Source: Myxococcota bacterium (GTDB lineage Bacteria; Myxococcota_A; UBA9160; UBA4427). From it: a DNA stretch of 64,000 bases. Location: positions 271,268 to 335,267 of the forward strand of contig JBNLVL010000034.1 of NCBI GenBank assembly GCA_050618075.1. Reading direction: 5' to 3'. Below the pieces are notes generated by a model, which saw nothing but the letters and a program-made list of their open reading frames with translations, was not told the DNA's origin and ran no database searches. The translations under genes and the position numbers were made by a program. Every line of letters starts with the position of its first letter. The first letter of the stretch is position 1. Shown here one piece after another: positions 15,486 through 39,585 of this stretch.

Positions 15486-16466
15486 GCGGGCGAGCGCGCC
15501 GGCGTTGGCGCAGTGGGCCAGCGGCCGTCCCTCGAGACCCGCCAGCAGGTTGTCCACGGCCAGGTCCGCCATGCGCGACCGGGTCGCGATGGAGGCGGAC
15601 CCGATGTGCGGGGCCAGCACGACGTTGGGCAGGCCCAGGAGCGGGCTGTCGGGCGAGAGGGGCTCCCGCTCGAAGACGTCGAGCGCCGCCCCGGCCAGGT
15701 GCCCGTCGGCCAGGGCCGAGGCCAGCGCCGCCTCGTCGACGATCTCGCCGCGGGCGGTGTTGACGAGGATGGCGCCGCGCGTCATACGAGCCAGCGCCGC
15801 CGCGTCGATGAGATGACGCGTCTCGGCGGTGGCGGCCACGTGGAGGCTCACGAAGTCCGACTCCGAGAGCACCCGGTCGAGCGGCGCGGCCTCCACGCCC
15901 TCCACCGGGCGACCCGAGCGCGTCCAGCCGAGCACACGCATCCCGAATCCCCGGGCCCGGCGCGCGACCGCCTGGCCGATCGAACCCAGTCCGACGAGAC
16001 CCAGGGTGGCGCCGTGCAGGTCGCGGCCCAGGAGCATGTCCGGCTCCCAGCTGCGCTCCGGGGTCCACTGCCCCTCGCGAACGAAGCGGTCGGCCTCGAC
16101 CACGCGCCGGGCGGCGGCCAGGAGCAGGGCGAAGGCCAGGTCGGCGGTGGTCTCGACCAGGACCCCGGGGGTGTAGCCGACCGGAAGGCGCCTTCGGGTC
16201 GCTGCGTCGAGATCGATGTGGTTCACACCCACCGAGCAGCTCGAGATCACGCGGAGCGCCGGCGCCGCGGCGATGAGCTCGGCGTCGACGCGGTCCGTGA
16301 GCAGACACAGGAGCCCCTCGCAGTCCGCCACGCGTTCTCGAAGCACGTCGGGCGGGGGTGCTCCGGGTCCGGGCCACACGCTCGAATCCACGCTTCGGGC
16401 CAGACGCTCGAGCGCCCGACCGGGAAGACCGCGCGTCACGAAGACCTTCTTGCGATCGCTGCTCAC
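15447..16466 (-). CDS. D-isomer-specific 2-hydroxyacid dehydrogenase (glyoxylate/hydroxypyruvate reductase-like)
   Basis: GTG 16466 with a GAGGGGG SD. Contains GLVGLGSIGQAVARR (NAD site) and LAPHIGSAS. Its 3' end overlaps the convergent NYN gene by 39 nt. Confidence 0.85.
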   Translation of the reverse strand: MSSDRKKVFVTRGLPGRALERLARSVDSSVWPGPGAPPPDVLRERVADCEGLLCLLTDRVDAELIAAAPALRVISSCSVGVNHIDLDAATRRRLPVGYTPGVLVETTADLAFALLLAAARRVVEADRFVREGQWTPERSWEPDMLLGRDLHGATLGLVGLGSIGQAVARRARGFGMRVLGWTRSGRPVEGVEAAPLDRVLSESDFVSLHVAATAETRHLIDAAALARMTRGAILVNTARGEIVDEAALASALADGHLAGAALDVFEREPLSPDSPLLGLPNVVLAPHIGSASIATRSRMADLAVDNLLAGLEGRPLAHCANAGALARSGPGTLGQEAPG

Positions 16467-16738
16467 CCGACGCCCCCTCTGGCTCCTGGGAAAAAAGGTC
16501 CCGAAGATCGAAGGGAAGGTTGACCCCGGGGCCCCAGGCAAAATAACGTCAGGCGTCCTGGGAATCTGGAAACACTCTGGGGCTCCGCTCCAACTGCGCC
16601 CTCCTCCGAAGCGACTCCCCGAAACGTCCATCGTCGCGACGCGCTGAATCGAGGGTCGGTGAGCCGGTGTCTCCTCTGCGCGCCCGTCTGCGCTGGCCCG
16701 TCGCGGCGAGCCGGGCCTCCGTCTGATGCGAGGAACTC

Positions 16739-19700
16739 ATGTCTGAAGCGCCCGTCCACTCGGTCTCCGACTCCTGGGTCCAGAAGGTCGCGCGGTGGAT
16801 CACCGACCACCGCTACTTCGTGGCCTCGATGCTCATCCTGTCCACGCTGTTCTTCTTCTACCCCATCCTGAACGCGATGCTGACCGGGGCGGGCCTCCCG
16901 CTGCCGGGACCCACGGTCCGGGTGGACACCGAGGCCCGCGCCCAGTGGCCCGACCATCCCTTCATCCACGCCCAGGACAAGTTCGCCGGCGTCTTCGGAA
17001 CCTCCTCGCTGGTCGCGATCGCCGTGGTGGTGGAGGAAGGCACGATCTTCACCCCCGAGGTGATCGCCAAGATCGACCGCATCACGAAGCGCTTGGACGG
17101 CCTCGGCTTCGACAGCAAGACCGACGAGCGGGACGATCTGCGCTGGGAGCTCGAGGAGCAGGGCCTCGAGGGTCCGGAGATCCAGAAGATCCTCGATCGG
17201 CGCTACCCGCCCTATCCGGTCAACCACTACCAGGTGAGCTCGGTCACCCACTCCGGAACCCGGGTGATCCAGATCGAAGCCTCGGGCGACATCACGAGCA
17301 GCACGCTCATGGGCGAGGTGCCGGAGACCCAGGAGGAGGCGGACGCCTTCGGAGCGCTGGTGCGCCAGAACCCGCCCATCATCTACGGGCGCTACGTCTC
17401 CCGCGACCAGAAGGGCGCGCTCATCACCGCGGGCTTCGTGACCGACCGCCTGAGCGGCCTGGAGACCTTCCAGGCGGTCTTCGATCACGTGGACCAGATC
17501 AAGCAGGACGAAGAGACCGACAACGTCCGGATCTACGTCTCGGGCGCGCCCATCCTGGTGGGCTGGATCCTGCGCCACGCCTACCAGATCGGCTTCTTCC
17601 TGCTGCTCTCGACCTCCACCATCTTCGGCCTGCTGTGGCTGTACTTCCGCCGCTGGCACGGCGTGCTCATCCCGCTCATCGCCGCCATCGCCACGGTGAT
17701 CTGGGGCTTCGGCTTCACCGGCTGGGTCGGGATCACCTTCGACCCACTCATCCTCGTGATTCCGAGCATCATCACCGCGCGCGCCATCTCACACACGGTG
17801 CAGATGGCGGAACGCTTCTTCGAAGACTACGAGACGATGCTCCCGCAGATCGGGGACCCGGAGCAGGCCAAGATCGAGGTGGCCACGGTGGCCATGGGCG
17901 AGCTGATCGTGCCGGGCACCCTGGGCATCGTCACCGACACGGTCGGACTGCTGGTGATCCTGGTGACGTCGATCCCGCAGATGCGCGACCTGGGCATCTT
18001 CGGCGCGTTCTGGGTGGCGAGCATCATCGTCACCGTGGAGATCCTGCACCCGATCCTCATCTGCTTCATGCCCGCCCCCACGGAGCACGAGCACTTCCTG
18101 CCGAACTTCATGATCCGGTTCACGCGGGCGGTGGGCAACGTCACGACCCACCCGCGCTGGAAGTACGCGATCGCGGGCGTCACCGTGCTGCTCTTCGTCA
18201 GCTCGACCTACATCACGCTCTTCCACTCCCAGGTGGGCGAAGCGCGGCCGGGCACCCCGCTGCTCTTCCCGGACCACCCGTGGAACGAGGCGACGGCCCA
18301 GATCGCCGAGCGGTTCGGGGGCATCGACTCGTTCGTCGTGTACGCCGACGGCGACAAGAAGGACGCCGCCGGCGACGCCGCGCCGATCCTGCGGATGGAG
18401 GAGTTCGAGCGCTGGATGTCGGCGTACACGAACCTGGGCACCACGGTCTCGGTGGTGCCCATCCTCCGTACGACATGGAGGATGAACCACTACGGGGACC
18501 CGAAGTGGCTGTTCGTGCCGAACGACCAGGCCACGGTGCGCCAGCAGCTCTTCCAGCTGCGCACCAACGGTCCCCCGGGATTCCTGCGCCCGTTCATGAC
18601 CGACGACGGGCGCCACGCCAACATCTCGTTCTTCTATCCGGACCACAAGGGAGAGACGATCCTGCAGGTGGTCGCGGCGAGCCGGGAGTTCATCAAGCGC
18701 AACCCGATCGGCGAGGTGATCGTGCGCCTGGAGAAGGACCACGCCGCGCCCGACGCGCCGTTCTTCAGCTACGACTCCCTGGCGGACAAGTGGTACTACA
18801 TGCTCGGGCCGCTGCTTCCGCCCCGGAACCACACCCTCAAGGTGAGCGTGCGCACCGACGACGGGACCTACGAGACCCGCACGGTCAACATGGTGAACGG
18901 AGGGGGCGAGGCCGACCTGCCCGAGTGGATCGAGGAGTTCCGCGAGAACGCCATCTACGACTACGAGGACAAGTTCGACTCGGTCGAGGAGGGTGAGATC
19001 TTCACCTGGCCCGAGACCCTGGCGGACTGGGACACCTCCGACGTGGACGCGTGGTGGGAGGACGGGGAGCTCGGCATCCGCGCGGTGGCCGTCAACACCA
19101 AGGACCTCATCGTGGAGGACCTGAAGGCCATCGACGCCGTCCCCAGCTATCAGTCGACGAACTCCTGGACGCGCGGCGTGCAGTTCGTGATGGCCGGCGG
19201 CCTGATGGGCATCATCGCCGCCATCGACGACGAGGTCGAACGCAGCCACGTCGCCAACATCGCGCTGATCTTCCTGGTGATCTTCGTCCTCCACTCGGTC
19301 ACGTACCAGTCGGTTCCCAGCGGCGCGATCATCCTGCTGCAGATCGCGACGGCGACGATGCTCTCCCTGGCCTACATGGCCCTGGCGGGCCTGGGCCTCA
19401 ACATCAACACCCTGCCGGTGCAGTCCGTCGGCGTCGGCATCGGAGTCGACTACGCGATCTACATCGTGGATCGCATCCGTCACGAGGTGGCGGACACCGA
19501 AGACATCGACGAAGCGGTCAGACGGGCGGTGCGTACGACGGGCATGGCCGTCTCGTTCACGGCGACCACCATCGTCGGGGGCATCATCACCTGGACGGCC
19601 TCCGACCTGCGCTTCCAGGCCGAGATGGCGCGCCTGCTCTCGATCCTGATGGTCATCAACATGTTCGGAGCCATCACGGTCGTGCCGGCCTTCTACTCGA

Positions 19701-19804
19701 TCCTGCGGCCCAAGGTGGCCACGGCCCTGCTCACCGACGAGCAGCGCGAAGCCCTCCGCCTCCAGCGGGAGGCCGAGCGCCGCAAGGGCCTGCTCGACGA
19801 CTGA
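16739..19804 (+). CDS. RND-superfamily MMPL-type transporter, 1021 aa
   Basis: Two 5-6-helix TM bundles (about aa 270-470 and 800-990), each preceded by a large soluble loop. The second loop carries an acidic, Trp-rich insert. ATG with an AGGA SD. Confidence 0.85.
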   Translation: MSEAPVHSVSDSWVQKVARWITDHRYFVASMLILSTLFFFYPILNAMLTGAGLPLPGPTVRVDTEARAQWPDHPFIHAQDKFAGVFGTSSLVAIAVVVEEGTIFTPEVIAKIDRITKRLDGLGFDSKTDERDDLRWELEEQGLEGPEIQKILDRRYPPYPVNHYQVSSVTHSGTRVIQIEASGDITSSTLMGEVPETQEEADAFGALVRQNPPIIYGRYVSRDQKGALITAGFVTDRLSGLETFQAVFDHVDQIKQDEETDNVRIYVSGAPILVGWILRHAYQIGFFLLLSTSTIFGLLWLYFRRWHGVLIPLIAAIATVIWGFGFTGWVGITFDPLILVIPSIITARAISHTVQMAERFFEDYETMLPQIGDPEQAKIEVATVAMGELIVPGTLGIVTDTVGLLVILVTSIPQMRDLGIFGAFWVASIIVTVEILHPILICFMPAPTEHEHFLPNFMIRFTRAVGNVTTHPRWKYAIAGVTVLLFVSSTYITLFHSQVGEARPGTPLLFPDHPWNEATAQIAERFGGIDSFVVYADGDKKDAAGDAAPILRMEEFERWMSAYTNLGTTVSVVPILRTTWRMNHYGDPKWLFVPNDQATVRQQLFQLRTNGPPGFLRPFMTDDGRHANISFFYPDHKGETILQVVAASREFIKRNPIGEVIVRLEKDHAAPDAPFFSYDSLADKWYYMLGPLLPPRNHTLKVSVRTDDGTYETRTVNMVNGGGEADLPEWIEEFRENAIYDYEDKFDSVEEGEIFTWPETLADWDTSDVDAWWEDGELGIRAVAVNTKDLIVEDLKAIDAVPSYQSTNSWTRGVQFVMAGGLMGIIAAIDDEVERSHVANIALIFLVIFVLHSVTYQSVPSGAIILLQIATATMLSLAYMALAGLGLNINTLPVQSVGVGIGVDYAIYIVDRIRHEVADTEDIDEAVRRAVRTTGMAVSFTATTIVGGIITWTASDLRFQAEMARLLSILMVINMFGAITVVPAFYSILRPKVATALLTDEQREALRLQREAERRKGLLDD

Positions 19805-19868
19805 GCGCGGGCGGGCCGCCGCAGTCGAGTACCCGGTCTTCGCGTACGGGACGCTCGAAGCCCCCGAG

Positions 19869-20246
19869 GTGGTCGAGCTCGTGCTGGGGCGCAGGCTGCC
19901 CGGCGTGGCCGCTCGGCTCGATGACTACGCGCGTCATCGGGTTCGCGGCGAGCTGTTCCCGGCCATCGTGCCGAGGAGCGGGGCCTCGACGCCGGGGACC
20001 CTGCTGCGCACGCTCGCCCCGGACGATCTCGCGCGCCTGGACTCCTTCGAGGGCGCTCTGTATCGGCGCTCGACGGTCGAGGTGTGCCTCGATGGAGGCC
20101 ACGCCCATGGGTCTCCGGGGACCGAGAGGGCATTCACCTACGTGCTTCGGGCGCGCTACGCCGACCGCCTGAGCGATGACGCGTGGAGTCGTGCGCGGCT
20201 CCATCGGGAGTGGCTCCCGATCCTCCTCGAGCGTTGGCGAAGTTGA
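19869..20246 (+). CDS. Gamma-glutamylcyclotransferase-like (AIG2/GGCT fold) ORF with an anomalous start
   Basis: Track ORF of 125 aa starting at GTG. The conserved N-terminal strand VEYPVFAYGTLEAPE is encoded in frame upstream (19824-19868) but has no ATG/GTG/TTG before it. Confidence 0.55.
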   Translation: MVELVLGRRLPGVAARLDDYARHRVRGELFPAIVPRSGASTPGTLLRTLAPDDLARLDSFEGALYRRSTVEVCLDGGHAHGSPGTERAFTYVLRARYADRLSDDAWSRARLHREWLPILLERWRS

Positions 20247-20253
20247 ATCACCA

Positions 20254-20271
20254 CGACACTAATGAGTGTCG
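20254..20271 (+). other. Perfect hairpin CGACACT-AATG-AGTGTCG just after the GGCT-like stop
   Basis: 7-bp stem and 4-nt loop. The T run (20283-20286) begins 12 nt later, so this is not a canonical intrinsic terminator. Confidence 0.3.
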
Positions 20272-20321
20272 ATTCGAACACATTTTCCCGCGCAATGCTC
20301 GATGGACATTGGAGAATTTCG

Positions 20322-20351
20322 TTGTCCTCGATCAATGACTCGGCGTATAAC
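20322..20351 (+). promoter_or_regulatory. Sigma70-like promoter candidate TTGTCC-N18-TATAAC for the giant OMP gene
   Basis: Lies in the only AT-rich stretch upstream of 20455. An AACAA-N7-TTGTT inverted repeat (20349-20365) overlaps the -10 and predicted start. Confidence 0.3.
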
Positions 20352-20454
20352 AAGTTTCAGTTGTTGTCGTAGGGGGGGCAGCCCGCGGTCGTTCACTGGG
20401 GAGAACGGCCACGGCGATCCGCAGGGTCGGCCGCCTCGAGATGCGGGGTGATCG

Positions 20455-23400
20455 GTGAAGACGATGCGCGAGTTCGAGTGGCGGAGGCAGCGATCCGGGC
20501 GCCCGCTCTCCTCCAGCCACGAGGGACCGAATCGCTCCGGTGTCCACCGCCCGCGTGCTCGACGCTCTGGGTGGCCGTCGGTCGCATGGCTCGCGCTGCT
20601 GGGAATCGCAGCCCTGTCGGCCGCCGCTCCGGCCCGCGCCTTCGAGGCCTTCGACGGTCGTTTCCAGGCTCACGGCTTCTTCGAGTCCCAGATGCGCGCG
20701 ATCAGCGCGGACTACGCCGAGCAGTGGGACATCGTCCAGTGGTACCAGATCTTCAACCTGGAGGTGGAGCTCGACATCCTGCCCGACGGGATCGGCTTCA
20801 TCGACTCCATCTCCGGGTTCGTGCGGGCCGAGGTCCGCTACGACTGCGTCTACTCCCGCGGCTGCGGGACGATGCGCAACGTGAACACCGTGGGAGACCG
20901 CGCGAAGCGGCTTCCGCGGCGACTCGCGAACGGCCGTGAGAACGTTGCCGCCGGCGCCTTCCTGGTGGAGCCCGAAGGCGAGCGCCTGTCCAAGAACCGC
21001 GACCCGGTGCCGTTGAGCGAGGTGGCGGGATTCAAGACCGCAGCCGAGCAGGAAGGAGCGGACAACCGGCTCGGCGGCGTGAAGACCTCGTGGACCAAGA
21101 GCGTGTTCGTCCAGGGCGAGGGCTTCCAGGAGACCACGATCCAGAGCCGCTTCGACGATCCGTTCCCCTACCTCTTCGAGCGCTTCGACGACTTCCGCTT
21201 CACCCACGTCCAGCAGATCGGTGGCGGGATGAACGGCCTGCCCGTGGCGATCATGGGCCCCTGGCTGCCCAAGAACTTCATCGTGGCCAACGCCGGCCTG
21301 GCCGATCGCATCAATCCCTTCGACGACTCGCGCCAGAGCCCCGTCGTGAAGGCCGCCGCCTACAACTCCGCCTTCAAGAGCAAGTACGTGGACGAGGGCC
21401 GGACGCTGGGACGACCGGAGCGGGCGGCCTCCTTCGCGCGCACGGTGACCGGCTCGGGCGCCCTGCCCTTCCGGCCGATCCCGCCCCAGGACGAGGGCAA
21501 CTACGGCGTCAAGAACGGACGGGCCCGGGGCATCTACATCCCCAGCCGGCCGGCGCGTGAGCTGATCCAGGCCGGCAAGATCGACGACTTCACCAACGCG
21601 CTGAACTTCCGCGAGTCCGAGCGCGCCTGGAACCGGGGCGCCAGCCAGCAGGACGAGAAGGAGCTGAAGGAGGCCTACCTCGACATCGACATGTTCGACA
21701 GCCGCCTCTGGCTGCGGATCGGCAAGCAGCAGATCGTCTGGGGCAAGACCGAGCTCTTCCGCACCACGGACCAGTTCAACCCCCAGGACGTCGCGCTCGC
21801 CTCGCTTCCCAGCCTGGAGGAGTCGCGGATCGCCCTCTGGTCGGCGCGCGCGGTCTACTCGTTCTACGAGGTGGGCCCCCTGGAGGACGTGCGCCTCGAG
21901 CTCGCGGTCAACTACGACGACTACGAGTCGGCGGACTTCGGCGCCTGCGGCGAGGCGTTCACCGTCAACCTGGTCTGCCAGGGCGCCTTCGGCGCCTTCG
22001 CCCACGGACTCACGGGCATCGGCCTGCTCGGCGCGCGCACGCCCGAGGACCCCTGGAACGACCGGCGCGGGATCGAGTTCGGCGGGCGACTGGAGTGGCG
22101 CTGGGACCGGTTCTCCTTCGCCATCAGCGACTTCTACGGCTACGACGACTTCCCCTACGTCGAGCGGGTGTCGACCTTCGAGCGCAACGTCGACCCGAAG
22201 TCGGGGCGGCCGCGGATCATGGGGTCCCGCAACCCCTGCCCGCAGGGCTACGAGGACGAGTGCCTCATGCCGGGCCCGAGCAAGAGCCGCACCAAGAGCA
22301 CGGTGGTCGGCCACTACAACGACCCCGACAACCAGAAGCGGCACCGCAAGGCCTACCGCTCGAAGCCGGACTCCTACCAGAACGTGCCCAAGGTGGCCTT
22401 CAACGACCCGAACAACGCACTGCTCAACCATTCGGCGAACCAGCAGGTCTTCGCCATGATCTGCGCCACCACGATCGGCGTGGTGGACCTCGACGGCTCC
22501 GCCTGCGCACAGAACGTGTTCGGATCGGTCGCGCCCGCACTCGATCTTCCCGGGGTCAACTTCACCGTCGGCCAGGCCGCCTCCGCCATCCTGGCCGGAT
22601 CGGAGCAGGCCGCCCGCCTGATCTTCCTGCGCACCGGCTTCAACCTCGCGGACTTCCTCGTCGAGCTCAACGCGGACATCAACGACGTCGGCGCCGGTAG
22701 CAACCCCAACACCACCCGTCTGGTCCGCCAGAACAACATCGACGCGGGTGGCAACATCTCGAACAAGGACCCCGGCGGGTCGAACAAGGCCCTGCGCCTC
22801 AGCACCGAGTGCCTGGACTACAACTTCAACCCGGCCGGGATGCCCTGCGGCGGCGTGCCGGTGGGCGACCCCAGGGCAGCGGGCTCCGGCGACTTCATGC
22901 GCGAGGGCCTGGCGCTGACCCAGAAGCTGTCTCCGTACCAGGAGGCCCTCATCGGCTGCGGTCCGTTCTTCGGAACCAACTGCGACGACTCGGGCATCGA
23001 CTGGCTGAACGCCGAGTACACGTCCATGATGCAGTCGTTCGTGGGCTTCGAGGGCACGCGGGCGGGCTGGCGCACCGACAACTCGCTGCTGGGCCCCCAG
23101 CCGGGCACCATCGGATTCGTCGGGGGCCCGGTCTGCCTGTCCAACTACCTCTGGCCCGAGGGCCACAAGAATCGCAGTCGTGGGGACATCCGGCTGCCCG
23201 GGTGCCGGAGCGCCTACAAGGCCGACGGCAGCGTGAAGGACCGGCGGGCCGGGAACCCCCTGCTGCTCGTCGAGTACAACGCCGCGAAGGACGGCTGCGT
23301 GCGCTACGACCCCAACGTGCCGGGCTGCAACGATCCTTCGCTGCGGACGCTCGAGCAGCCGATCCTCAAGATGACCCAGGGCGTGTCCCAGGTGTTCGAG

Positions 23401-24339
23401 AACGAGATGGCGGCGCTCTCCTGGAACTTCATGATGCTCACCGCGTCCCAGGACGACGAGTTCAAGAAGTTCCAGAAGCAGGCCAAGAAGAAGAAGATCG
23501 CCAAGCTCGCCGATCAGGGCATCAACGTCGGCGAGTCCGACCCCAGGGTCCAGAAGGCGAGCCGGAACGAGGCGCTGAAGGCAGGGCAGTGCAGCATGGT
23601 CACGCCGCAGTACTGCGAGAACATCCAGGGCCTGCTGCGGCTGGGCGGCATCTCGCGCCCGGACGTCAAGGCCTCGGGCAACGGCACCTTCGGGCGACGG
23701 TCCTTCACCTGGCACAACGGCGGCGAGCTGGTGATCCGCGCGAACAAGCGCAACGTGCTGGGCTTCTCCTCGGACTTCGCCATCGACAGCCTCAAGTCGA
23801 ACTTCAGCATGGAGTTCACCTGGATCCCGGACAATCCGCGCTCGAACACCGAGTCGTACGACGGCCTCATCGAGGTCGACCAGTACAACCTCACGGTCTC
23901 GGCGGACCGCCCCACCTTCATCAACTTCCTGAACGCCAACCGCACGTTCTTCTTCAACACCCAGTGGTTCTTCCAGTACCTGGACGGCTACCGGAAGGGC
24001 AGCGGAGCCGGCCCCTGGAACGTGCTCATGACCTTCGCGGTCACCACGGGCTACTACCAGGACCGGCTGCTCCCCACGGTGGCGGCGGTGTACGACTTCC
24101 GCTCCGTCTCCGGCGCGGTCCTGCCCCAGGTGACCTACCGGTACAACGAGGCGTTCTCGGTCACCGTGGGCGCCAACATCTTCATGGGCAAGGCCGATCA
24201 GGTCGACATGTCGGTGAACCCGGTGGCGCTCAGCAACCGTGTCCAGGGACGGCGCACCTACAAGAACCAGGCGGAGAACGGCCTGGCCGTGTTCAGGGAC
24301 CGCGACGAGGTCTTCGTCCGGCTCCGCTACACGTTCTAG
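20455..24339 (+). CDS. Giant (1294 aa) DUF1302-like outer-membrane beta-barrel protein
   Basis: Signal peptide ...VAWLALLGIAALSAAAPARA/FEAF. Motif EAYLDIDMFDSRLWLRIGKQQIVWGKTELFRTTDQFNPQD. C-terminal beta-signal ...VFVRLRYTF. Start is GTG 20455 or ATG 20464. Confidence 0.7.
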   Translation: MKTMREFEWRRQRSGRPLSSSHEGPNRSGVHRPRARRSGWPSVAWLALLGIAALSAAAPARAFEAFDGRFQAHGFFESQMRAISADYAEQWDIVQWYQIFNLEVELDILPDGIGFIDSISGFVRAEVRYDCVYSRGCGTMRNVNTVGDRAKRLPRRLANGRENVAAGAFLVEPEGERLSKNRDPVPLSEVAGFKTAAEQEGADNRLGGVKTSWTKSVFVQGEGFQETTIQSRFDDPFPYLFERFDDFRFTHVQQIGGGMNGLPVAIMGPWLPKNFIVANAGLADRINPFDDSRQSPVVKAAAYNSAFKSKYVDEGRTLGRPERAASFARTVTGSGALPFRPIPPQDEGNYGVKNGRARGIYIPSRPARELIQAGKIDDFTNALNFRESERAWNRGASQQDEKELKEAYLDIDMFDSRLWLRIGKQQIVWGKTELFRTTDQFNPQDVALASLPSLEESRIALWSARAVYSFYEVGPLEDVRLELAVNYDDYESADFGACGEAFTVNLVCQGAFGAFAHGLTGIGLLGARTPEDPWNDRRGIEFGGRLEWRWDRFSFAISDFYGYDDFPYVERVSTFERNVDPKSGRPRIMGSRNPCPQGYEDECLMPGPSKSRTKSTVVGHYNDPDNQKRHRKAYRSKPDSYQNVPKVAFNDPNNALLNHSANQQVFAMICATTIGVVDLDGSACAQNVFGSVAPALDLPGVNFTVGQAASAILAGSEQAARLIFLRTGFNLADFLVELNADINDVGAGSNPNTTRLVRQNNIDAGGNISNKDPGGSNKALRLSTECLDYNFNPAGMPCGGVPVGDPRAAGSGDFMREGLALTQKLSPYQEALIGCGPFFGTNCDDSGIDWLNAEYTSMMQSFVGFEGTRAGWRTDNSLLGPQPGTIGFVGGPVCLSNYLWPEGHKNRSRGDIRLPGCRSAYKADGSVKDRRAGNPLLLVEYNAAKDGCVRYDPNVPGCNDPSLRTLEQPILKMTQGVSQVFENEMAALSWNFMMLTASQDDEFKKFQKQAKKKKIAKLADQGINVGESDPRVQKASRNEALKAGQCSMVTPQYCENIQGLLRLGGISRPDVKASGNGTFGRRSFTWHNGGELVIRANKRNVLGFSSDFAIDSLKSNFSMEFTWIPDNPRSNTESYDGLIEVDQYNLTVSADRPTFINFLNANRTFFFNTQWFFQYLDGYRKGSGAGPWNVLMTFAVTTGYYQDRLLPTVAAVYDFRSVSGAVLPQVTYRYNEAFSVTVGANIFMGKADQVDMSVNPVALSNRVQGRRTYKNQAENGLAVFRDRDEVFVRLRYTF

Positions 24340-24371
24340 CCGAGGCCGTCGGAGGCCGGGGGGCAGGCGGC

Positions 24372-25175
24372 GTGAAGGACATCCTCGACTACGCTGGACG
24401 AACGGTCGTGGTCTCGGGGTGTGCCACCGGCATGGGGGCTGCGGCGGCCCGCACCCTCGTGGACCTCGGCGCCGAGGTCCACGCGCTCGACGTGAAGCCC
24501 GTCGAGATCGCCGTGAAGCAGAGCCTCGCGGTCGACCTTCGCGACCGCGACTCCATCGACCAGGCGGTCTCCCGGCTGCCCGCCGCCGTCGACGTGCACT
24601 TCAACTGCGCCGGTCTCCCTGGACCTCCGTTCTCCACGCTCGACACCATGCTGGTCAACTTCGTCGGACTCCGTCACCTGACCGAGGCGGTGCTGCCGCG
24701 AGTGCCCCGGGGCGGCGCCGTCGCGAGCATCACCTCGGTGGCCGGCATGGGCTATCGCAAGAACATCGACGCCGTGAACGAGCTGCTCGCTACCCCCGAC
24801 TTCGAGTCGGGCCGGGCCTGGTGCGCCGACAACCCGGAGAAGGCCAACGGCTACCTCTTCTCCAAGCAGTGCATCATCGCGTACACCCTGCGTCGCGCCG
24901 CCGAGCTGGCCCCCGACGGCATCCGCGTGAACTGCCTGAGCCCGGCGCCGACCGATACGCCGATGATGGACGACTTCGAGAGCCAGATCGGCAAGGACTT
25001 CATGGTCGAGCACTTCCAGGCCCCCGTGGGCCGCAACGCGACCCCCGAGGAGATGGCCGAGCCCCTGGTCTTCCTGGGCAGCCGCGCGGCCCGCTTCGTG
25101 AGCGGCGTGAACCTCTTCGTCGACTTCGGCTACACGGCCGCGGTCGACGCGGGGCTGCGACCGGCGCTGCTCTGA
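24372..25175 (+). CDS. SDR oxidoreductase resembling 3alpha-hydroxysteroid dehydrogenase/carbonyl reductase (CalA/HsdA type)
   Basis: GTG 24372 inside track ORF 22809..25175. Contains VVVSGCATGMGAA, NCAGLPGP, catalytic YLFSK, and IRVNCLSPAPTDTPM. Confidence 0.85.
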   Translation: MKDILDYAGRTVVVSGCATGMGAAAARTLVDLGAEVHALDVKPVEIAVKQSLAVDLRDRDSIDQAVSRLPAAVDVHFNCAGLPGPPFSTLDTMLVNFVGLRHLTEAVLPRVPRGGAVASITSVAGMGYRKNIDAVNELLATPDFESGRAWCADNPEKANGYLFSKQCIIAYTLRRAAELAPDGIRVNCLSPAPTDTPMMDDFESQIGKDFMVEHFQAPVGRNATPEEMAEPLVFLGSRAARFVSGVNLFVDFGYTAAVDAGLRPALL

Positions 25176-25176
25176 G

Positions 25177-25545
25177 TCAGCCGTCGAGCCGTCGCAGCCG
25201 CAGGACGTTCCCCGGGCGGACCAGCGCTTCGAGCCACGCGGTCAGCACCCGAAGGCCTCGCTGAGGCCGTCCTGCCTCGAGGATCACCCGCTCGCCCGCC
25301 TCGAGGTCGACCTCCACCTCGGGCGACCGGCCCCAGTCGATCCGGACCTGCACGCGGTGGCGCCCGGGCGGAACGCAGAGCTGCGTGGTCCGGCCGAAGG
25401 CCACCGCACCGGCCTCGTGGCCGTCGACGCGGATCGAGAGGCGCCGGAGGGCTGCGATCCAGTGGCGCGTACGCCGGACCTCGATGCAGGCGAGCGGCGC
25501 GGGCTCCGGATGCCGGGCGCCGGGTGCTTCGTTCGCGGGCTTCAT
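25177..25545 (-). CDS. Hypothetical 122-aa protein, ATGA-coupled to the Rhs gene (candidate immunity/partner)
   Basis: ATG 25543-25545 overlaps the Rhs stop (TGA 25542-25544). AAGGAGGAG SD lies inside the Rhs 3' end. Beta-rich pattern RVDGHEAGAVAFGRTTQLCVPPGRHRVQVRI. Confidence 0.6.
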   Translation of the reverse strand: MKPANEAPGARHPEPAPLACIEVRRTRHWIAALRRLSIRVDGHEAGAVAFGRTTQLCVPPGRHRVQVRIDWGRSPEVEVDLEAGERVILEAGRPQRGLRVLTAWLEALVRPGNVLRLRRLDG

Positions 25546-28500
25546 GAACTCCTCCTTCGGGACCGGCTCGTCCGACGCGTGCGGGCGAGCGCGAGAACGG
25601 CGACCCACGGCGCGACCTCGAACCCCAGTCCGCAGGCGGGGCCGCCCACCTGGAGGGAATCGACTGTGCCGTCGATCACCATGTAGGCCCGGCTCGGGGC
25701 GTGCCACCGGGCCGGTCCGGGACGCCTGTAGCCTTCCACCTCTCCGGGACGGATGTCCATTCCGGCGTCGGCCGAAGGCGAAGATCCGTCGGGCCCGCCG
25801 TCCCTCGGCACGATGAGCGGGCTGAACTCTTCGATGAACTGGCCGAAGCCGACCCCCTGGCGCCCCGTCGACATCTGGTAGATGTGGTTGGCCACCGAGA
25901 AGCCCAGCAGAGAGCCAGCGGCGCTGCCCAGCGGGCCTCCGGCTTCGAAGCCGACCGCTCCGCCGAGGAGGGTCATGCCGCCGATGAAGAGGCCCCACGC
26001 GTACTGGGAGCTCGGCGTCGATGGCGCCGTGGGGCGGGCCTGACGACCGTCCGGGTCCCAGAACGAGACCGGATTGCCCTGCGTGTACGCGTACTGGTTG
26101 ACCAGCTGGTGGATCGGGTCGGGCGCCAGGAAGGCCGCCGCATCCGGATCGAGGACGCGGTGGCCGAGCACCAGCAGACGCCCGGCGCGCAGCCCGCGGG
26201 CGAAGTCGAACGGGTCTTCCTCGGAGCCCAGCTCGGCCCGCGCGCCGTAGGCGCCGTAGAGCAGGTAGCGGACCACCTTCCCGTCATCGTCCGAGACCAG
26301 GTGCACGTTGCCGCGGAAGTCGTAGTGGCGGAAGAGCCGCTCCCCGGTGCGGAGATCGGACCGAACCTCGGCGTGCTGGATGGCGCTCGGCTCGCCGTCG
26401 GCATCGGCCTCCACCCGTCCCCCGAAGCGATAGCGCACGACTTCGGCGCCGATCCGGCGCCAGAGCGGCCGCCCCGAGGTGTCCCACGCGAACTCCGTGT
26501 GCCCGCCGATCCCGCGGATGCGGCCGGCGCCGTCCCAGTCGATGGACTCGCCGTCGCGCTCCACCACGAAGCCGCCGTCGTCGTAGTTGTACGTGTGGGT
26601 CCGCTCCGCGCAGGGGGCCGGTGCATCGATCCCGAGCAGCCGATTGCGTTCGGCGTTGAAGAGCGCCGTCACCGACTCGTCCTCCTCCTCGCACGTGAAG
26701 CTGCTGCGATTGGAGAGCTGATCGTAACGGTGGAAAGTGTACTCCGCGGAGTCGGGCTCCCGGCTGAAGAGCAGCCTCCTTCCCACCGGCTCCGCGGAGG
26801 GGCCGATCTGGCCGGTCTCGAAGAGCTCCTCTGCGGGAACCGGCTGATCGCTCGCGATCAGGGCCCACGACAGGCTGCGAAGGCAGGTCCGGGCGGCGCA
26901 GATGGTTCCATCCGCGCGCTCGTAGAAGCGCTCGGCCAGCGGCCCGCCGCCCCCCACGGGTCGCAGCGACGTCTCGGTGATCTCGCCCGTGGTGGGGTCG
27001 TAGTCGGCCGTGTACTTGAGCCCGTTGGCGTAGCGGGTCCTCGTGAGCAGGCCGTCCACGTAGGTCCGATCGAGCAGGGTCTCGCCATCCTCGAGGAGCT
27101 CGACCTCACGGTCGGCGAGATCGTAGCGGCGCTCCAACGCCGTCAGCACGGAGAGCTCCGGTCGCAGGTACCGCTCGGCGACGATCCGCGAGCGCGCGTC
27201 GTAGTCGAGCCACAGCTGCTCGCCCTCCGGAAACACGATGATCGCGAGGCGCCCGGCGGCGTCGTACACACGGTGCTCGGTTCCAGGCCGAAGCGAGTCG
27301 GACAGCGCGACCAGGCGTCCGCCCTGGTAGCTCCGCACCTCGTCGGACTCCAGGACGCCGTCGCGCAGGACGGCGTGGCGCACGACGCGGCCGAGCGGAT
27401 CGTACTCCCACTCTTCACGCATCCCGTTGGGGCGCTCGATGGCCGTGGTCCGACCGGCCGTGTCCAGCTCGATGTGCGTGGTCTTCCAGGCTCCGTCGAC
27501 GCGGTCGCGCCGGGCCACGACCCGCCCCAGCGCATCGTAGTCCCACTCGCAGTCGCCCCCGAACGGACGCCGCATGCGCAGGGGGCGGCCGTCGCTGCGA
27601 TAGTCGATCTCGAGCCAGAGCGGATCGTCGGGGGAGAACGCGAACTCCTGCGCGACGAGCTCGTAGCCGATCGGGTTGCGGTCGCCGTCGTAGCGCACGC
27701 TGCGGATGCCGCCGCCGCCGTCGCGCGCCGCACCCCAGGGATCGGCTCCGGTGGTCCGGTTGCCCACCCCGTCGAACTCCAGGTCGCGCGGATCTCCGAC
27801 CAGGTCGACGGCTCGGGCGTGCCCCCGAGCGGTGTAGTCCTGGTACAGGAGGGATCCGCCGGCGACGCGGTTCACGCGGCGGAGCATCTCGTCTCCGCCG
27901 TACTCGAGGGTCGCTGACTCGCCCTCTCCGTTGCCGAGCTCGACGAGCCGGCCTACGGCGTCGTAGCGGCGGGTCTCGATGGCGCCGAGGTCGTCGTGGA
28001 TGTTCGCGATGGGCGTCGACTCCGGCGCCTCGCGGTCGACCGCGTCCCGGGCGTACTCGAAGCGCACCACGTTGCCCGACGGCTGGATCTCGCTCGTCAC
28101 GTCGTCGTTCTCGAGGGTCCAGCGAGTGACGAGGCCGTCGGCGTCCGTCCGCGAGACCGGACGCACGCCGACCCAGGTCGTGGTCTGGCGGTTGCCGAGG
28201 GGATCGACCGTCTCGCGCAGACGACCCCGGTCGTCGGAGGTGTACGACCACGCGCCCCCCAGGACATCGACGAGGTCGACCCGGTGGAGCCCGTCCACCA
28301 CGTCGCCCCAGACGATCCCCACCGTCGGATCCGTCTCCCCGACCTGGCGTGCGATCACTGGACGACCGTTCCGGTATTCGAACTCGAAGCGCTCCTCTTC
28401 GGAGGTCCGGATCGAAGCCAGCTGGCTGCCCGCGTAGGTGTAGCGGAAGCCCGGCCAGCCCTGCTCCATGTCCAGGGGATCCCGGGCCGCCTCGAGGCGT

Positions 28501-29198
28501 CCCTCTGCGTCGTAGCTGAAGCGCGCCCGACGACCCGCCCCGTCCAGCAGCCAGAGAATGCGGCCGGCTGGATCGCGATGGACCGTGACCAGGGGGTCGA
28601 GGGCGCCCCCGACGCGCTCCTGGACGATGCGTCGAAGCCGCAGCCCGGCCTCGGTGTCGCCGTACTCGAACAGCAGCCGAGGCAGCGCCGAGCTCGTCCA
28701 CCGGACCTCGGCGAGCTGACCGCTCGCGACGTCGAAGCGGTGCAGCAGACCGCCCTTGGTCTTCAATGCATTCCCGGAGACGACCACCCAGTGGGTCCCG
28801 GGGAGGGCGCCCCCGGGCGGCACCGCCGCCGCGTCGTGGCGCGCTCCCGTCGCGTCGGTGAAGACGGTCCCGTCGAAGTGCAGCTCGAAGCTCCAGCGCC
28901 AGGCCCGGTCCGCGGAGTTCCAGACGGCGCCCACGCGTTGGCGGCCGAGCTGGGAGTCGACCACGAGATCGGTGCGCTCGACGGTCAGGTTGGCCGTGGC
29001 CAGGTTGATCTCCGCCCCGGGCACCTCGACGACGGCGGCCCGCTGGTAGTCCGGAGTGCCCGCCACGGGTGTGATCGCTCCGTCTCCACATCGACTTCCC
29101 AGCAAGGTCACGGCCAACAGGGCCAGCCCGCCGGCTCGCAGCACGCCGGCTCGCAGCACGCCGAGTTCGGCGGCAGAAGTGGGTCGGTCTCCCAACAT
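25542..29198 (-). CDS. Rhs / YD-repeat protein with N-terminal signal-like segment and atypical C-terminal extension
   Basis: 1218 aa. Many YD repeats (SYDAEGRL, RYDAVGRL, DYDALGRV, EYDPLGRV, VYDAAGRL). Core-end motif NQYAYTQGNPVSFWDPDG. N-terminus ends ...GGLALLAVTLLGSRC. Confidence 0.9.
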   Translation of the reverse strand: MLGDRPTSAAELGVLRAGVLRAGGLALLAVTLLGSRCGDGAITPVAGTPDYQRAAVVEVPGAEINLATANLTVERTDLVVDSQLGRQRVGAVWNSADRAWRWSFELHFDGTVFTDATGARHDAAAVPPGGALPGTHWVVVSGNALKTKGGLLHRFDVASGQLAEVRWTSSALPRLLFEYGDTEAGLRLRRIVQERVGGALDPLVTVHRDPAGRILWLLDGAGRRARFSYDAEGRLEAARDPLDMEQGWPGFRYTYAGSQLASIRTSEEERFEFEYRNGRPVIARQVGETDPTVGIVWGDVVDGLHRVDLVDVLGGAWSYTSDDRGRLRETVDPLGNRQTTTWVGVRPVSRTDADGLVTRWTLENDDVTSEIQPSGNVVRFEYARDAVDREAPESTPIANIHDDLGAIETRRYDAVGRLVELGNGEGESATLEYGGDEMLRRVNRVAGGSLLYQDYTARGHARAVDLVGDPRDLEFDGVGNRTTGADPWGAARDGGGGIRSVRYDGDRNPIGYELVAQEFAFSPDDPLWLEIDYRSDGRPLRMRRPFGGDCEWDYDALGRVVARRDRVDGAWKTTHIELDTAGRTTAIERPNGMREEWEYDPLGRVVRHAVLRDGVLESDEVRSYQGGRLVALSDSLRPGTEHRVYDAAGRLAIIVFPEGEQLWLDYDARSRIVAERYLRPELSVLTALERRYDLADREVELLEDGETLLDRTYVDGLLTRTRYANGLKYTADYDPTTGEITETSLRPVGGGGPLAERFYERADGTICAARTCLRSLSWALIASDQPVPAEELFETGQIGPSAEPVGRRLLFSREPDSAEYTFHRYDQLSNRSSFTCEEEDESVTALFNAERNRLLGIDAPAPCAERTHTYNYDDGGFVVERDGESIDWDGAGRIRGIGGHTEFAWDTSGRPLWRRIGAEVVRYRFGGRVEADADGEPSAIQHAEVRSDLRTGERLFRHYDFRGNVHLVSDDDGKVVRYLLYGAYGARAELGSEEDPFDFARGLRAGRLLVLGHRVLDPDAAAFLAPDPIHQLVNQYAYTQGNPVSFWDPDGRQARPTAPSTPSSQYAWGLFIGGMTLLGGAVGFEAGGPLGSAAGSLLGFSVANHIYQMSTGRQGVGFGQFIEEFSPLIVPRDGGPDGSSPSADAGMDIRPGEVEGYRRPGPARWHAPSRAYMVIDGTVDSLQVGGPACGLGFEVAPWVAVLALARTRRTSRSRRRSS
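29131..29160 (-). repeat. Perfect 15-bp tandem duplication (CCGGCTCGCAGCACG x2) inside the Rhs signal region
   Basis: Read directly from the sequence. It encodes the duplicated pentapeptide in ELGVLRAGVLRAGG. Confidence 0.9.
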
Positions 29199-29311: not shown

Positions 29312-30157
29312 TCAGGCCTTCTCGCTGCGCAGCTTGCGGAAATCGGGCTCCCGCTTCTGGAGGAAGGCCATGACGGCCTCGATGTTCTCGGGAGACCCCG
29401 CCTGCTGCACCATGCCGGCGTTCTCGGCCTCGCGCGCCGCCTGGATGCCGGCGCGATGGGCGGCCATCAGGCAGCGCTTCGTGGCCTGCAGGGAGCTCAC
29501 GGGCCAGCGCGCCATCTCCCGGGCCTTCGCCAGGACCGCCTCCAGGAGCTCGTCGTCCGGGTAGGCGCGCGCGGCGATCCCCACCTCCACGGCGCGCTCG
29601 GCCCCGACCCACTCGGCGGTGAAGAAGAGCTCGGCCGCGCGCTGCTGTCCGATCGTGGCCTGGAGCAGGTAGCTGCTGGCGGCTTCGGGGACCAGGCCGA
29701 GGCTCACGAACGGCATGCGCAGGCGAAGCCCCTGACCGACGTAGACGAGGTCGCAGTGGTACAGGAAGGTGGCGCCGATCCCCACGGCCACGCCCGTGGC
29801 GGCCGCGAGAAGCGGCTTGTCGAAGGCGCAGAGGGAGTCCATGCACTGCTGGAAGGGATGGGCCTGGATCCCCTCCCGGGCCGTCGCCCCGTCGCCGGCG
29901 CCCTCGCCGGCCGGGTCGCCGGCCGGCATGAACGAGGAGAGATCCTGGCCGGCCGAGAACTCGCCCCCGGCTCCGGTGACGACCACCACCCCGACGTCGG
30001 GATCCTCGCGCGCCTCGTCCAGGGCGTCGCGGAGCTGGATCCACTGCGCATCGTCGAAGGCGTTCTTGCGTCGCGGCCGGTCGAGGGTGAGCAGCAGCAC
30101 GCCGTCGGCGAGCTCTCGGCGGACACGGCGCTCCTCGTCGCTCGGTCGTTCGCTCAC
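29312..30157 (-). CDS. Enoyl-CoA hydratase/isomerase (crotonase family)
   Basis: 281 aa with LLLTLDRPRRKNAF and VVVTGAGGEFSAGQDL. GTG start overlaps the upstream stop (GTGA). Confidence 0.9.
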   Translation of the reverse strand: MSERPSDEERRVRRELADGVLLLTLDRPRRKNAFDDAQWIQLRDALDEAREDPDVGVVVVTGAGGEFSAGQDLSSFMPAGDPAGEGAGDGATAREGIQAHPFQQCMDSLCAFDKPLLAAATGVAVGIGATFLYHCDLVYVGQGLRLRMPFVSLGLVPEAASSYLLQATIGQQRAAELFFTAEWVGAERAVEVGIAARAYPDDELLEAVLAKAREMARWPVSSLQATKRCLMAAHRAGIQAAREAENAGMVQQAGSPENIEAVMAFLQKREPDFRKLRSEKA

Positions 30158-31800: not shown

Positions 31801-31826
31801 CGTATCTCTCCCGGAAGAAATGGGTT

Positions 31827-32291: not shown

Positions 32292-32441
32292 GGCTCACTC
32301 CGTGGCCGACCGCCCCACGCGCGGCGCGGGCGTCGGCGTCATGGGTGGGTCGTGTGGCTGACTTCCCCCAGCCTGCGGCGTACGGCGGCCTGAACTCGAT
32401 TCAAACGCCGTTCGGCCGGACCGGATGCATCCGCACCAGAT

Positions 32442-35358: not shown

Positions 35359-35368
35359 GGAGGGGGTC

Positions 35369-39585
<4,217 letters not shown>

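Follow-up and report, generated by a model that had tools for sequence, protein, structure and literature searches.

The window analysed here, a 64-kb stretch of DNA, carries on its forward strand a gene for a 1,294-aa protein of the DUF1302 outer-membrane family, preceded by genes for an RND-superfamily transporter and a small GGACT/AIG2-like protein and followed, 47 nt past its stop codon, by the start of an SDR gene (Table 1). Both the length of the open reading frame and a Pfam PF06980 match above cutoff bear out the initial annotation of a 1,294-aa DUF1302-like barrel, and an identical NCBI protein carries the name 'DUF1302 family protein [Myxococcota bacterium]'. The reading frame opens with GTG, and just two start codons, this GTG (codon 1) and an ATG (codon 4), precede the hydrophobic core of the signal peptide. 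The N-terminal sequence, MKTMREFEWRRQRSGRPLSSSHEGPNRSGVHRPRARRSGWPSVAWLALLGIAALSAAAPARA/FEAFDG (slash, putative cleavage site), leads into a mature N terminus, FEAFDGR, that is conserved among homologues. Initially described as some 40 Arg-rich residues, the stretch ahead of the hydrophobic core comprises 37 residues with 11 K/R, compared with a family median of 13 aa; a comparably long n-region occurs in the two closest homologues only, and its sequence is not conserved. A Lys patch noted at the same time was recovered in insert 2, on a predicted helix spanning model residues 907–926, and is basic in the two closest homologues only, being absent or deleted elsewhere. Both the extended n-region and the patch are specific to this lineage. 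The 208-nt intergenic region upstream of the barrel gene could possibly act as its promoter or regulatory region; a sigma-70 consensus scan of 20247..20454 returned no match.

Table 1 Features of the giant DUF1302 gene and its neighbours in the window
Feature	Position	Strand	Basis or remark
RND-superfamily transporter, MMPL/HAE3 type, 1021 aa	16739..19804	+	Upstream of barrel gene; Pfam MMPL E=4.7e-23
GGACT/AIG2-like protein, 125 aa	19869..20246	+	Between RND and barrel genes; Pfam PF06094 E=3.5e-12
Intergenic region, 208 nt	20247..20454	+	AT-rich island ~20250-20370; sequence reading
Barrel gene, stop codon included	20455..24339	+	1294-aa giant DUF1302-family outer-membrane protein; ORF list, translation, Pfam PF06980
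Sec-type signal peptide, aa 1-62	20455..20640	+	Cleavage motif ARA/FE (AxA type); sequence reading
Basic n-region of signal peptide	20455-20565	+	Precedes hydrophobic core
N-terminal barrel strands beta1-beta3, aa 63-130	20641..20844	+	DSSP strands aa 97-109, 116-130; beta1 (~aa 67-84) outside model
Insert 1, aa 131-403, expanded loop after beta3	20845..21663	+	Opens with C131/C137 pair
Barrel core strands, aa 404-574	21664..22176	+	Best Pfam stretch, BLASTP to P0255, constant segment lengths
Family signature GKQQIVWGKTELFRTTDQFNPQD, aa 423-445	21721-21789	+	Inside barrel core
Cys pair C498/C508	21946-21978	+	Inside barrel core region
Insert 2, aa 575-1089, 515-aa loop-embedded domain	22177..23721	+	Seven Cys pairs
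Lys patch KKFQKQAKKKKIAK, aa 1004-1017	23464..23505	+	On a long helix predicted for insert 2
C-terminal barrel strands, aa 1090-1294, nine long strands, no Cys	23722..24336	+	DSSP, BLASTP; ends ...VFVRLRYTF
SDR, coniferyl-alcohol dehydrogenase subfamily	24387..25175	+	NCBIfam NF009092 275.8 bits versus cutoff 242; Pfam adh_short

A conserved DUF1302 barrel

The window protein scores 58 bits with PF06980 (DUF1302; cutoff 23.2, E = 1.2e-15), and the best stretch of the match, aa 399–548, covers only profile positions 141–295 of 541 because two large inserts interrupt it. The DUF1302 signature loop that follows the fifth strand, G-[KR]-Q-Q-[IV]-[IV]-W-G-[KR]-T ... N-P-x-D, is present as GKQQIVWGKTELFRTTDQFNPQD; BLASTP aligns its GKQQIVWGKT with GKQQVIWGRT in the corresponding loop of the canonical Pseudomonas protein P0255 (631 aa; GKQQVIWGRTVFRVLDVINPVD), and W429, G430, K431 and T432 are invariant across 120 homologues. 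Overall, BLASTP matches aa 362–558 to P0255 residues 165–374 and aa 1094–1294 to residues 410–631, and aa 63–130 align gap-free across 56 sequences with a mean identity of 58%. Both features of outer-membrane export were found, a Sec signal peptide at the N terminus and, at the other end, an aromatic β-signal, VFVRLRYTF (LTLRYSF in the canonical protein). The signature, the core and C-terminal barrel, the signal peptide and a ...RY[ST]F end are shared with the canonical members P. putida PP_0765, C. defragrans AmeA and P0255.

An AlphaFold2 (AF2) model covering aa 95–1294 (pLDDT 85.2, pTM 0.89) contains, by DSSP, 19 long strands outside the inserts in an antiparallel arrangement, which with the unmodelled β1 gives about 20 candidate barrel strands. 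This count differs from that published for canonical members, which is 18 strands in one account (PMC13499233) and 18 and 16 in different places of another (bioRxiv 10.64898/2026.03.07.710327). The protein is a DUF1302 outer-membrane β-barrel, probably of about 18–20 strands, with a Sec signal and a Y-x-F β-signal.

AlgE and the Occ/OprD-type 18-strand substrate channels are the reported structural neighbours of DUF1302 (PMC13499233). Foldseek matches of the barrel include AlgE (4afk) and OccAB2 (5dl6), yet these are weak (E = 0.05–0.09, target TM ~0.25), and matches to FadL or to generic porins are just as good. Both kinds of channel are large monomeric outer-membrane barrels whose loops cover or narrow the pore, but they show no sequence relationship to the window protein and have no loop-embedded domains of hundreds of residues. 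TonB-dependent transporters have an N-terminal plug and a TonB box in front of a 22-strand barrel; the window protein gives no Plug or TonB_dep_Rec match in Pfam, and its mature N terminus FEAFDGRFQAHGFF leads straight into β1. FhuA and FepA are likewise large barrels in which disulfides close short extracellular loops, but receptors of this type combine one or two such bridges with an N-terminal plug and a TonB box, compared with a putative nine here.

Two expanded loops account for the length

At 1,294 aa the window protein falls outside the typical DUF1302 range of ~600–630 aa (~600–632 aa in the canonical proteins compared) and, as first noted, is about twice the family length: the median is 632 aa in a sample of 120 Pseudomonas-type proteins closely related to one canonical query, and AmeA has 605 aa (PMC6394551). 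Unusual against the canonical family, this length is ordinary inside its own clade, a point that counts in part against the initial reading; in this clade the best 120 homologue matches all measure 1,030–2,222 aa and 268 50%-identity clusters match at E ≤ 1e-30. Whereas canonical DUF1302 proteins belong to Pseudomonadota, almost all members of the giant clade come from uncultured Myxococcota MAGs, and the window protein is a typical member of this large, undescribed group.

The added residues lie in two loops. Insert 1 expands the loop that follows β3, from ~105 aa in the canonical protein to 273 aa (225–549 aa in 120 homologues), and insert 2 replaces a canonical loop of ~35 aa with a domain of ~515 aa; its anchor-to-anchor segment ranges from 371 to 1,446 aa across the 120 homologues and holds 8–32 Cys, an even number in 99%. 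Total length in these homologues is explained by the two inserts together (r = 0.999), and the barrel segments stay constant at 22, 65–68, 38–41 and 189–197 aa, the last being measured in 120/120 between N1100, an invariant anchor, and the C terminus. Sequence identity is 30–33% in the inserts versus 56–69% in the barrel. Modelled alone, insert 2 is predicted to fold independently (pLDDT 81, pTM 0.86); Foldseek found no fold match for it in the PDB (best E = 1.9), and Pfam found no domain and no catalytic family in either insert. It is well supported by these alignments and by the model that two loops have probably grown into a surface ectodomain of ~790 aa.

As a general rule of outer-membrane protein topology, long loops lie on the side opposite the termini. 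Strand parity counted from either terminus of the AF2 model sets both inserts opposite the termini, and we infer that both would be extracellular. The initial annotation had also proposed plug loops, and the inserts might instead be periplasmic or plug the barrel, docking the RND pump or DUF1329; as the window has no separate DUF1329, its place might be taken by a domain within the barrel protein itself. We consider this arrangement improbable, since parity from both termini of the model contradicts it, ~790 residues would be too many for the lumen of an 18–20-strand barrel, Pfam and Foldseek find no DUF1329 or LolA-like match in the inserts, and a separate DUF1329 gene still stands beside many giants. 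The initial idea of disulfide-stapled surface sequence is partly borne out: the extra length does sit in two loop insertions, strand parity in the model favours their outward position, and comparative Cys pairing points to the staples. The ligand-capture role proposed with it is conjectural.

Nine consecutive cysteine pairs

The protein contains exactly 18 Cys arranged, as initially described, in nine nearest-neighbour pairs 6–23 residues apart, and all nine peptides quoted in that description were recovered. The pairs are 131/137, 498/508 and, in insert 2, 595/603, 670/684, 786/798, 835/843, 894/917, 948/958 and 1046/1054, with internal spacings of 6, 10, 8, 14, 12, 8, 23, 10 and 8 residues in that order and 31–361 residues from one pair to the next. 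The signal peptide and everything C-terminal of residue 1054 are Cys-free, in keeping with the reported absence of Cys from the C-terminal strand-rich region; by contrast, the statement that all Cys lie between the first and last thirds does not hold, as C131/C137 fall in the first tenth and C894–C1054 in the last third. When 18 Cys were placed at random in the mature chain 200,000 times, no trial kept each of the nine within-pair gaps to 23 residues or fewer, or their sum to 99 or fewer.

Homologues gain and lose these residues in twos. Five pairs, C131/C137 (CVYSRGC) among them, are invariant in 56/56 sequences, and C670/C684 are both kept in 55 and jointly lost in 1. Other pairs vary: C894/C917 (both in 32, neither in 24, a single Cys in 0) and C786/C798 (both in 23, neither in 31, a single Cys in 2); C948/C958 fall in poorly aligned columns with 9 cases of a single Cys. 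The Cys count is even in 96/97 mature homologues, although because the homologues are phylogenetically related neither this parity nor the co-losses represent independent events. Cys number increases with length (r = 0.94), from 14 at ~1,010 aa to 34–38 at ~2,140–2,180 aa, and barrel segments are without Cys with one exception among 120 sequences. In the AF2 model, eight of the nine pairs lie in 10-residue blocks with pLDDT ≥77, and the C786/C798 region is of low confidence (pLDDT ~45–60).

Comparative support for local disulfides is strong, and on this evidence the most likely arrangement of the 18 Cys is nine short-range disulfides, each joining one Cys to the next (1–2, 3–4 and so on); eight of these bridges would sit within the inserts or at an insert base. 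Closely spaced Cys can also bind metal, but we regard metal ligands or free thiols as very unlikely here: spacings vary from 6 to 23 residues with no CxxC or CxxCH motif anywhere in the protein, Cys come and go strictly in twos rather than in sets of four, and the chain is exported to an oxidising compartment, where pairing of consecutive Cys is a known product of DsbA (PMC8405906). Loops with short Cys pairs are not peculiar to giants, as canonical Pseudomonas DUF1302 has three short pairs compared with the nine found here; C498/C508 is homologous to the canonical loop pair C298/C309, and the window protein lacks the other two canonical pairs, C170/C177 and C578/C581.

Autotransporter (type V) passengers offer an analogy: they too are large chains that meet DsbA in the periplasm before they traverse the outer membrane, and Cys pairs are tolerated in natural passengers only when closely spaced (PMC3546941), the pattern also seen here. 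A common constraint on Cys spacing may act on passengers and giant DUF1302 proteins. The passenger stands at a terminus, whereas the domains here lie inside barrel loops, and Pfam matches no autotransporter domain in the window protein. The autotransporter barrel, with 12 strands, is also much smaller than that of the DUF1302 giant.

Genomic context of the giants

The adjacent RND gene has HAE3 TIGR00921 as its best NCBIfam match, with a score below cutoff, and its C terminus, compared by eye, is closely similar to that of the RND protein upstream of a canonical DUF1302 gene on P. veronii plasmid NZ_CP142043.1. At the syntenic locus L003 its counterpart is 91% identical, the GGACT/AIG2-like gene holds the same position and, as in the window, the barrel gene lies among genes for alcohol dehydrogenases and acyl-CoA catabolism. 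Canonical clusters, AmeABCD among them (PMC6394551), have the gene order RND–DUF1302–DUF1329. Cofitness has been reported for DUF1302, DUF1329, BNR and RND genes (bioRxiv 10.1101/072470), and an RB-TnSeq study in P. putida connects them with growth on fatty esters and Tween 20 (bioRxiv 10.1101/2020.07.04.188060). Compared with the four-gene AmeABCD-type system (DUF1302/DUF1329/BNR/RND), the window has an HAE3/COG1033-type RND without DUF1329 or BNR, and also differs from canonical loci in having no adjacent LuxR gene: tblastn with a DUF1329 protein across the 64-kb window gave no match (best E = 1.3), and Pfam found no BNR/Ycf48-like (COG4447) β-propeller in the 33 window ORFs scanned. The giants nevertheless share with canonical DUF1302 a link to HAE3-type RND here and to DUF1329 in the wider clade, in which DUF1329 is present at 24/82 loci and is the nearest downstream neighbour at 21/67. 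We consider the RND transporter the likely inner-membrane partner of the barrel.

The RND neighbour is common to only 1/82 related loci (L003); topA is the nearest upstream neighbour at 17/65 giant loci, and many giants lie beside housekeeping genes. Giant paralogues also occur in tandem arrays and several times per genome. Such isolation and duplication, like the fast evolution and variable length of the inserts, would suit a surface ectodomain that works by itself, whether as adhesin, recognition module or enzyme, the barrel being only its anchor; an esterase role has been hypothesised for DUF1302/DUF1329 (bioRxiv 10.1101/2020.07.04.188060). We hold such a lone role to be unlikely, though a more serious contender than periplasmic inserts: the inserts match no Pfam domain or catalytic family and insert 2 no PDB fold, conservation of the barrel core and its signature loop exceeds what an inert anchor would call for, and a DUF1329 partner is kept at ~30% of loci.

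A proposed route for the giants

We favour, with confidence somewhat better than even, a joint reading in which a DUF1302 barrel with two expanded extracellular loops and nine short disulfides serves a transport role paired with RND. DsbA, which links consecutive cysteines while a chain is translocated (PMC8405906), would oxidise them as the protein enters the periplasm. Because each bridge closes a loop of just 6–23 residues, the chain would stay thin enough to pass through the outer membrane while BAM helps to assemble the barrel, and the bridges would afterwards stabilise the exposed domain. The protein may form the outer-membrane terminus of a DUF1302/DUF1329/HAE3-RND-type route for hydrophobes or lipids. 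In this role it would work together with the neighbouring RND pump, and specificity for substrate or surface would be set by the variable ectodomain.

More speculatively, and in our view with the odds against it, the giants may constitute an undescribed outer-membrane class in which a fixed barrel carries a novel-fold loop ectodomain of 600 to ~1,900 aa with 7–19 consecutive short disulfides, diversified through paralogue arrays into a set of surface receptors. These would trap insoluble or hydrophobic substrates, or lipids from prey, and feed them into the DUF1329/RND route. If this is true, the giants would be extreme natural test cases for BAM export of very large loops.

A clade of giant DUF1302 proteins

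The barrel gene is a real gene with a strong coding signal (GC3 0.95) and a 1294-aa product, which Pfam places in DUF1302 with 58 bits against a cutoff of 23.2, the match covering part of the profile only. It thus belongs to a known family and is not a new kind of system. A whole-database search returned 889 relatives at E ≤ 1e-5; the best 120 of these are all 1030–2222 aa long, and most are labelled Myxococcota or 'Deltaproteobacteria' MAG proteins. Among 50%-identity representatives, searched exhaustively, 1145 matched at E ≤ 1e-3, of which 530 reached 1e-10 and 268 reached 1e-30. Across one-genome-per-species contigs, relatives are encoded in 254 stretches, nearly all from uncultured Myxococcota-type MAGs, with several giant paralogues per genome and tandem arrays in 7 of 80 loci, one of which (L004) carries three giants in a row. 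Hundreds of collinear homologues rule out gene fusion or assembly artefact as the origin of the gene.

The initial annotation considered the protein unusually long. On the canonical side, one DUF1302 member and its close Pseudomonas-type relatives were sampled, the 120 relatives having a median length of 632 aa, and AmeA of Castellaniella has 605 aa (PMC6394551). With clade members at 1030–2222 aa, the protein is therefore twice the canonical size yet ordinary, slightly below the median, among giants. The giant clade is apparently undescribed, as no account of such proteins was found in the DUF1302 passages of six papers, and as a whole it is more interesting than the barrel protein alone. Of the barrel families that lack both a solved structure and a known function, DUF1302 is one of the largest (PMC10629564, PMC13499233). 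Several canonical members (P0258, P0279 and P0349) are listed at NCBI as 'cox2 cytochrome oxidase subunit 2', evidently in error.

Loop expansion on a constant barrel

BLASTP against P0255, a canonical Pseudomonas protein of 631 aa, aligns residues 362–558 with canonical residues 165–374 and residues 1094–1294 with 410–631, so that about 535 residues, including insert 2 (aa 575–1089), stand where the canonical loop has about 35. The loop past the third strand has likewise grown from about 105 canonical residues to 273 (insert 1, aa 131–403). Segment lengths measured between invariant anchor columns of a 120-sequence alignment are constant in the barrel (22, 65–68, 38–41 and 189–197 aa), where Cys is absent with one exception in 120 sequences. 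Over the same homologues, insert 1 ranges over 225–549 aa with 0–12 Cys and insert 2 over 371–1446 aa with 8–32 Cys, the count being even in 99%. Together the two inserts explain total length (r = 0.999, 120 homologues), and identity is 56–69% in the barrel versus 30–33% in the inserts.

An AlphaFold2 model of aa 95–1294, built from an 84-sequence alignment and leaving β1 outside, reached pLDDT 85.2 and pTM 0.89. Long antiparallel strands occupy aa 97–130, 404–574 and 1098–1292, and the inserts are mixed helix and coil. In outer-membrane barrels, the side opposite the termini is the cell surface. Whether strands are numbered from the N-terminus or back from the C-terminal ...RYTF, both inserts come out opposite the termini, so that both would face the cell surface; strand parity in the model thus supports the surface location originally proposed for the extra sequence. 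The strand count is about 20 with the unmodelled β1 included, and published analyses give canonical DUF1302 barrels 18 (or 16) strands (PMC13499233; bioRxiv 10.64898/2026.03.07.710327).

Foldseek searches with the whole model matched generic barrels only (OmpC, FadL, AlgE and OccAB, all E ≥ 3.8e-3), and a sequence profile found nothing in the PDB at E ≤ 1. Folded alone, insert 2 reached pLDDT 81 and pTM 0.86; Foldseek matched it to nothing in the PDB (best E = 1.9), and it is a candidate new fold. That an insert serves as an internal DUF1329 or LolA-like substitute was rejected, since no Pfam or fold match was found and separate DUF1329 genes persist in the clade. The family's most conserved motif, IVWGKTELFRTTDQFNPQD, contains many invariant residues, and its loop has low confidence in the model (10-residue-block pLDDT 44–53); this loop may be a mobile gate or may bind a partner or ligand.

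Consecutive cysteine pairs in the loops

Translation bears out the 18 Cys and nine nearest-neighbour pairs of the initial annotation, with spacings of 6, 10, 8, 14, 12, 8, 23, 10 and 8 residues and 31–361 residues separating successive pairs. When 18 Cys were scattered at random over the mature chain 200,000 times, no trial kept all consecutive-pair gaps at 23 or below. The C-terminal region is Cys-free as described, the last Cys being residue 1054. The earlier statement that all Cys lie between the first and last thirds was wrong: C131/C137 is near the N-terminus and six Cys are in the last third.

Conservation of each pair was tabulated in a 56-sequence alignment of homologues of similar size.

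Conservation of cysteine pairs in 56 homologues of similar size
Pair	Both Cys	Neither	Single
131/137	56	0	0
498/508	56	0	0
595/603	56	0	0
835/843	56	0	0
1046/1054	56	0	0
670/684	55	1	0
894/917	32	24	0
786/798	23	31	2
948/958 (poorly aligned region)	18	29	9

Cys number is even in 96 of 97 homologues with a recognisable mature N-terminus and rises with length (r = 0.94): proteins of about 1010 aa have 14 Cys, those of about 2140–2180 aa 34–38. This pattern is what disulfide partners would show, and the proposal that the extra sequence is disulfide-stapled is well supported as a prediction from pairwise conservation, co-loss and even counts. Eight of the nine pairs have 10-residue-block pLDDT of at least 77, and pair 786/798 lies in a low-confidence stretch.

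In canonical Pseudomonas DUF1302 proteins, too, loops hold closely spaced Cys pairs, three in number (spacings 7, 11 and 3); one of these, GQCGQPNSILDAGC, is homologous to C498/C508, making local loop pairs an ancestral habit of the family. C498/C508 is the only pair common to the two proteins: equating C131/C137 with the canonical 'SRGC' pair is ruled out because BLASTP puts canonical C170/C177 at the Cys-free aa 362–375. Giants multiply such loop pairs, which reach a density of about 1.2 per 100 aa in insert 2.

Signal peptide and start codons

The long Arg-rich stretch noted ahead of the hydrophobic core of the signal peptide is present. Only GTG (codon 1) and ATG (codon 4) could serve as starts 5′ of the core, so the 37-residue basic n-region is real, barring a non-canonical start. 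The family median is 13, and comparably long n-regions occur only in the two closest homologues, the three sequences being mutually unlike. We read the length as probable lineage-specific drift of a permissive n-region with no conserved extension. A Tat signal is ruled out by the lack of an S/T-RRxFLK motif beside the core, as is a conserved ESPR-like extension by the lack of sequence conservation even among the three proteins having a long n-region. The previously noted Lys patch is present at aa 1004–1017, in a variable, indel-prone part of insert 2, and is basic only in the same two homologues.

The NCBI entry identical to the barrel protein, P0001 (1215 aa), has Met80 as its annotated start, and both the signal peptide and the first, conserved strand (FEAFDGRFQAHGFFESQ) are thereby lost. 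A regular-expression test found the conserved N-terminal motif missing in 23 of the 120 best homologues, and the two of these inspected, P0001 and P0013, start downstream of it; start-codon miscalls may therefore be common in the giant clade. For annotation, such miscalls remove the signal peptide and first strand.

Genomic context

The barrel gene stands in a same-strand row: an MMPL/HAE3-type RND transporter, a GGACT-like gene, the barrel gene and an SDR of the coniferyl-alcohol dehydrogenase subfamily. At the locus of the closest homologue (L003, 70% identity) the order RND, GGACT, barrel is kept, amid a Zn-alcohol dehydrogenase and four acyl-CoA dehydrogenases. The window itself encodes four acyl-CoA dehydrogenases, a family III CoA-transferase, an AMP-dependent acyl-CoA ligase and an enoyl-CoA hydratase, a density consistent with a catabolic neighbourhood for hydrophobic acids.

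Positions of features in the window
Feature	Position	Strand	Remarks
GntR/FCD regulator	241–1065		
Acyl-CoA metabolism genes	1950–4515, 7982–9190, 29312–32400, 34039–36490		
AT-rich island	20250–20370		about 120 nt
Barrel gene	20455–24339	+	
N-terminal region up to the annotated P0001 start	20455–20694		aa 1–80
IVWGKTELFRTTDQFNPQD motif	21727–21816		aa 425–454
RHS-repeat protein	25542–29198	-	1218 aa
901-aa protein	50713–53418	+	
GC-rich region	54000–60000		GC up to 75–79% versus about 70% elsewhere
345-aa ORF	55580–56617	-	no Pfam match

Published genetic studies link DUF1302, DUF1329, BNR and RND genes by cofitness (bioRxiv 10.1101/072470); in later work the same four types were connected with monoterpene tolerance (PMC6394551) and with growth on fatty esters and Tween 20 (bioRxiv 10.1101/2020.07.04.188060). 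The gene context suggests a system of the DUF1302/DUF1329/RND type. On the basis of these genetics and the context, we propose that the barrel protein forms the outer-membrane terminus of a route for handling hydrophobes, its ectodomain serving as specificity module, and hold the transport role with moderate confidence. Against it, no DUF1329 or BNR gene was found in the 64-kb window, the RND neighbour is common to L003 only, and many giants are placed among housekeeping genes.

Among the giants as a group, no other gene is the next one downstream nearly as often as DUF1329 (21 of 67), which in most cases converges on the barrel gene; topA occurs in 22 and DUF1329 in 24 of 82 loci, with both in 15. 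An often-seen conserved core locus comprises, in this order, topA, one to three tandem giants and a mostly convergent DUF1329 gene (L004, L023, L025, L029, L036, L042, L047, L056, L059, L060, L064, L068, L078, L082 and L083), its giants being mostly about 1100–1830 aa and often longer forms. On a P. veronii plasmid, RND, DUF1302 and DUF1329 follow one another in a canonical cluster. Its DUF1302 gene (NZ_CP142043.1, L084/L085) has an in-frame TGA at the signature's invariant Trp (GKQQVI*GRT), crosses the record origin to about 1748 and has no entry in the gene table. Either it is a pseudogene or the TGA is a sequencing error; P0255 is the intact version.

A scan of 16300–25700 found no promoter-like site and one terminator-like match, on the opposite strand inside the RND gene. 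Genome GC is about 70%, and the AT-rich island immediately 5′ of the barrel gene may thus have a promoter or regulatory role; a sigma-70 consensus scan gave no match there. The RHS-repeat gene is convergent with the RND-GGACT-barrel-SDR row, and the unannotated C-terminal region of its product could be a toxin domain. In its N-terminal part, the 901-aa protein shows a weak resemblance, below threshold, to YhdP and DUF748, which are AsmA-like lipid-transport proteins, and the 345-aa ORF has unusual codon-position GC (0.92 at position 1).

Discussion

On entry of a chain into the periplasm, DsbA links its consecutive cysteines (PMC8405906), and autotransporter passengers, which then have to cross the outer membrane, accept Cys pairs only if these are closely spaced (PMC3546941). 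An ectodomain of at least 790 residues embedded in loops would meet the same constraint, and the strictly consecutive, short-span pairs suggest by analogy that it follows the same rule. Pairing of consecutive Cys 6–23 residues apart would need no isomerase and, being short, would keep the chain thin during BAM-assisted assembly; the bridges could later brace the exposed domain.

The giant clade appears to combine a constant barrel and, from modelling, putative novel-fold domains, the largest single loop reaching about 1,450 aa, with 7–19 consecutive predicted disulfides and paralogue arrays in uncultured Myxococcota. Such proteins pose a question of outer-membrane biogenesis, that of a single barrel moving more than 1,000 loop residues across the membrane. 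By holding the barrel constant as two loops range from a few hundred to about 1,450 residues, the giants constitute a natural experiment that separates scaffold from specificity module and offers a handle on the role of the DUF1302 family.
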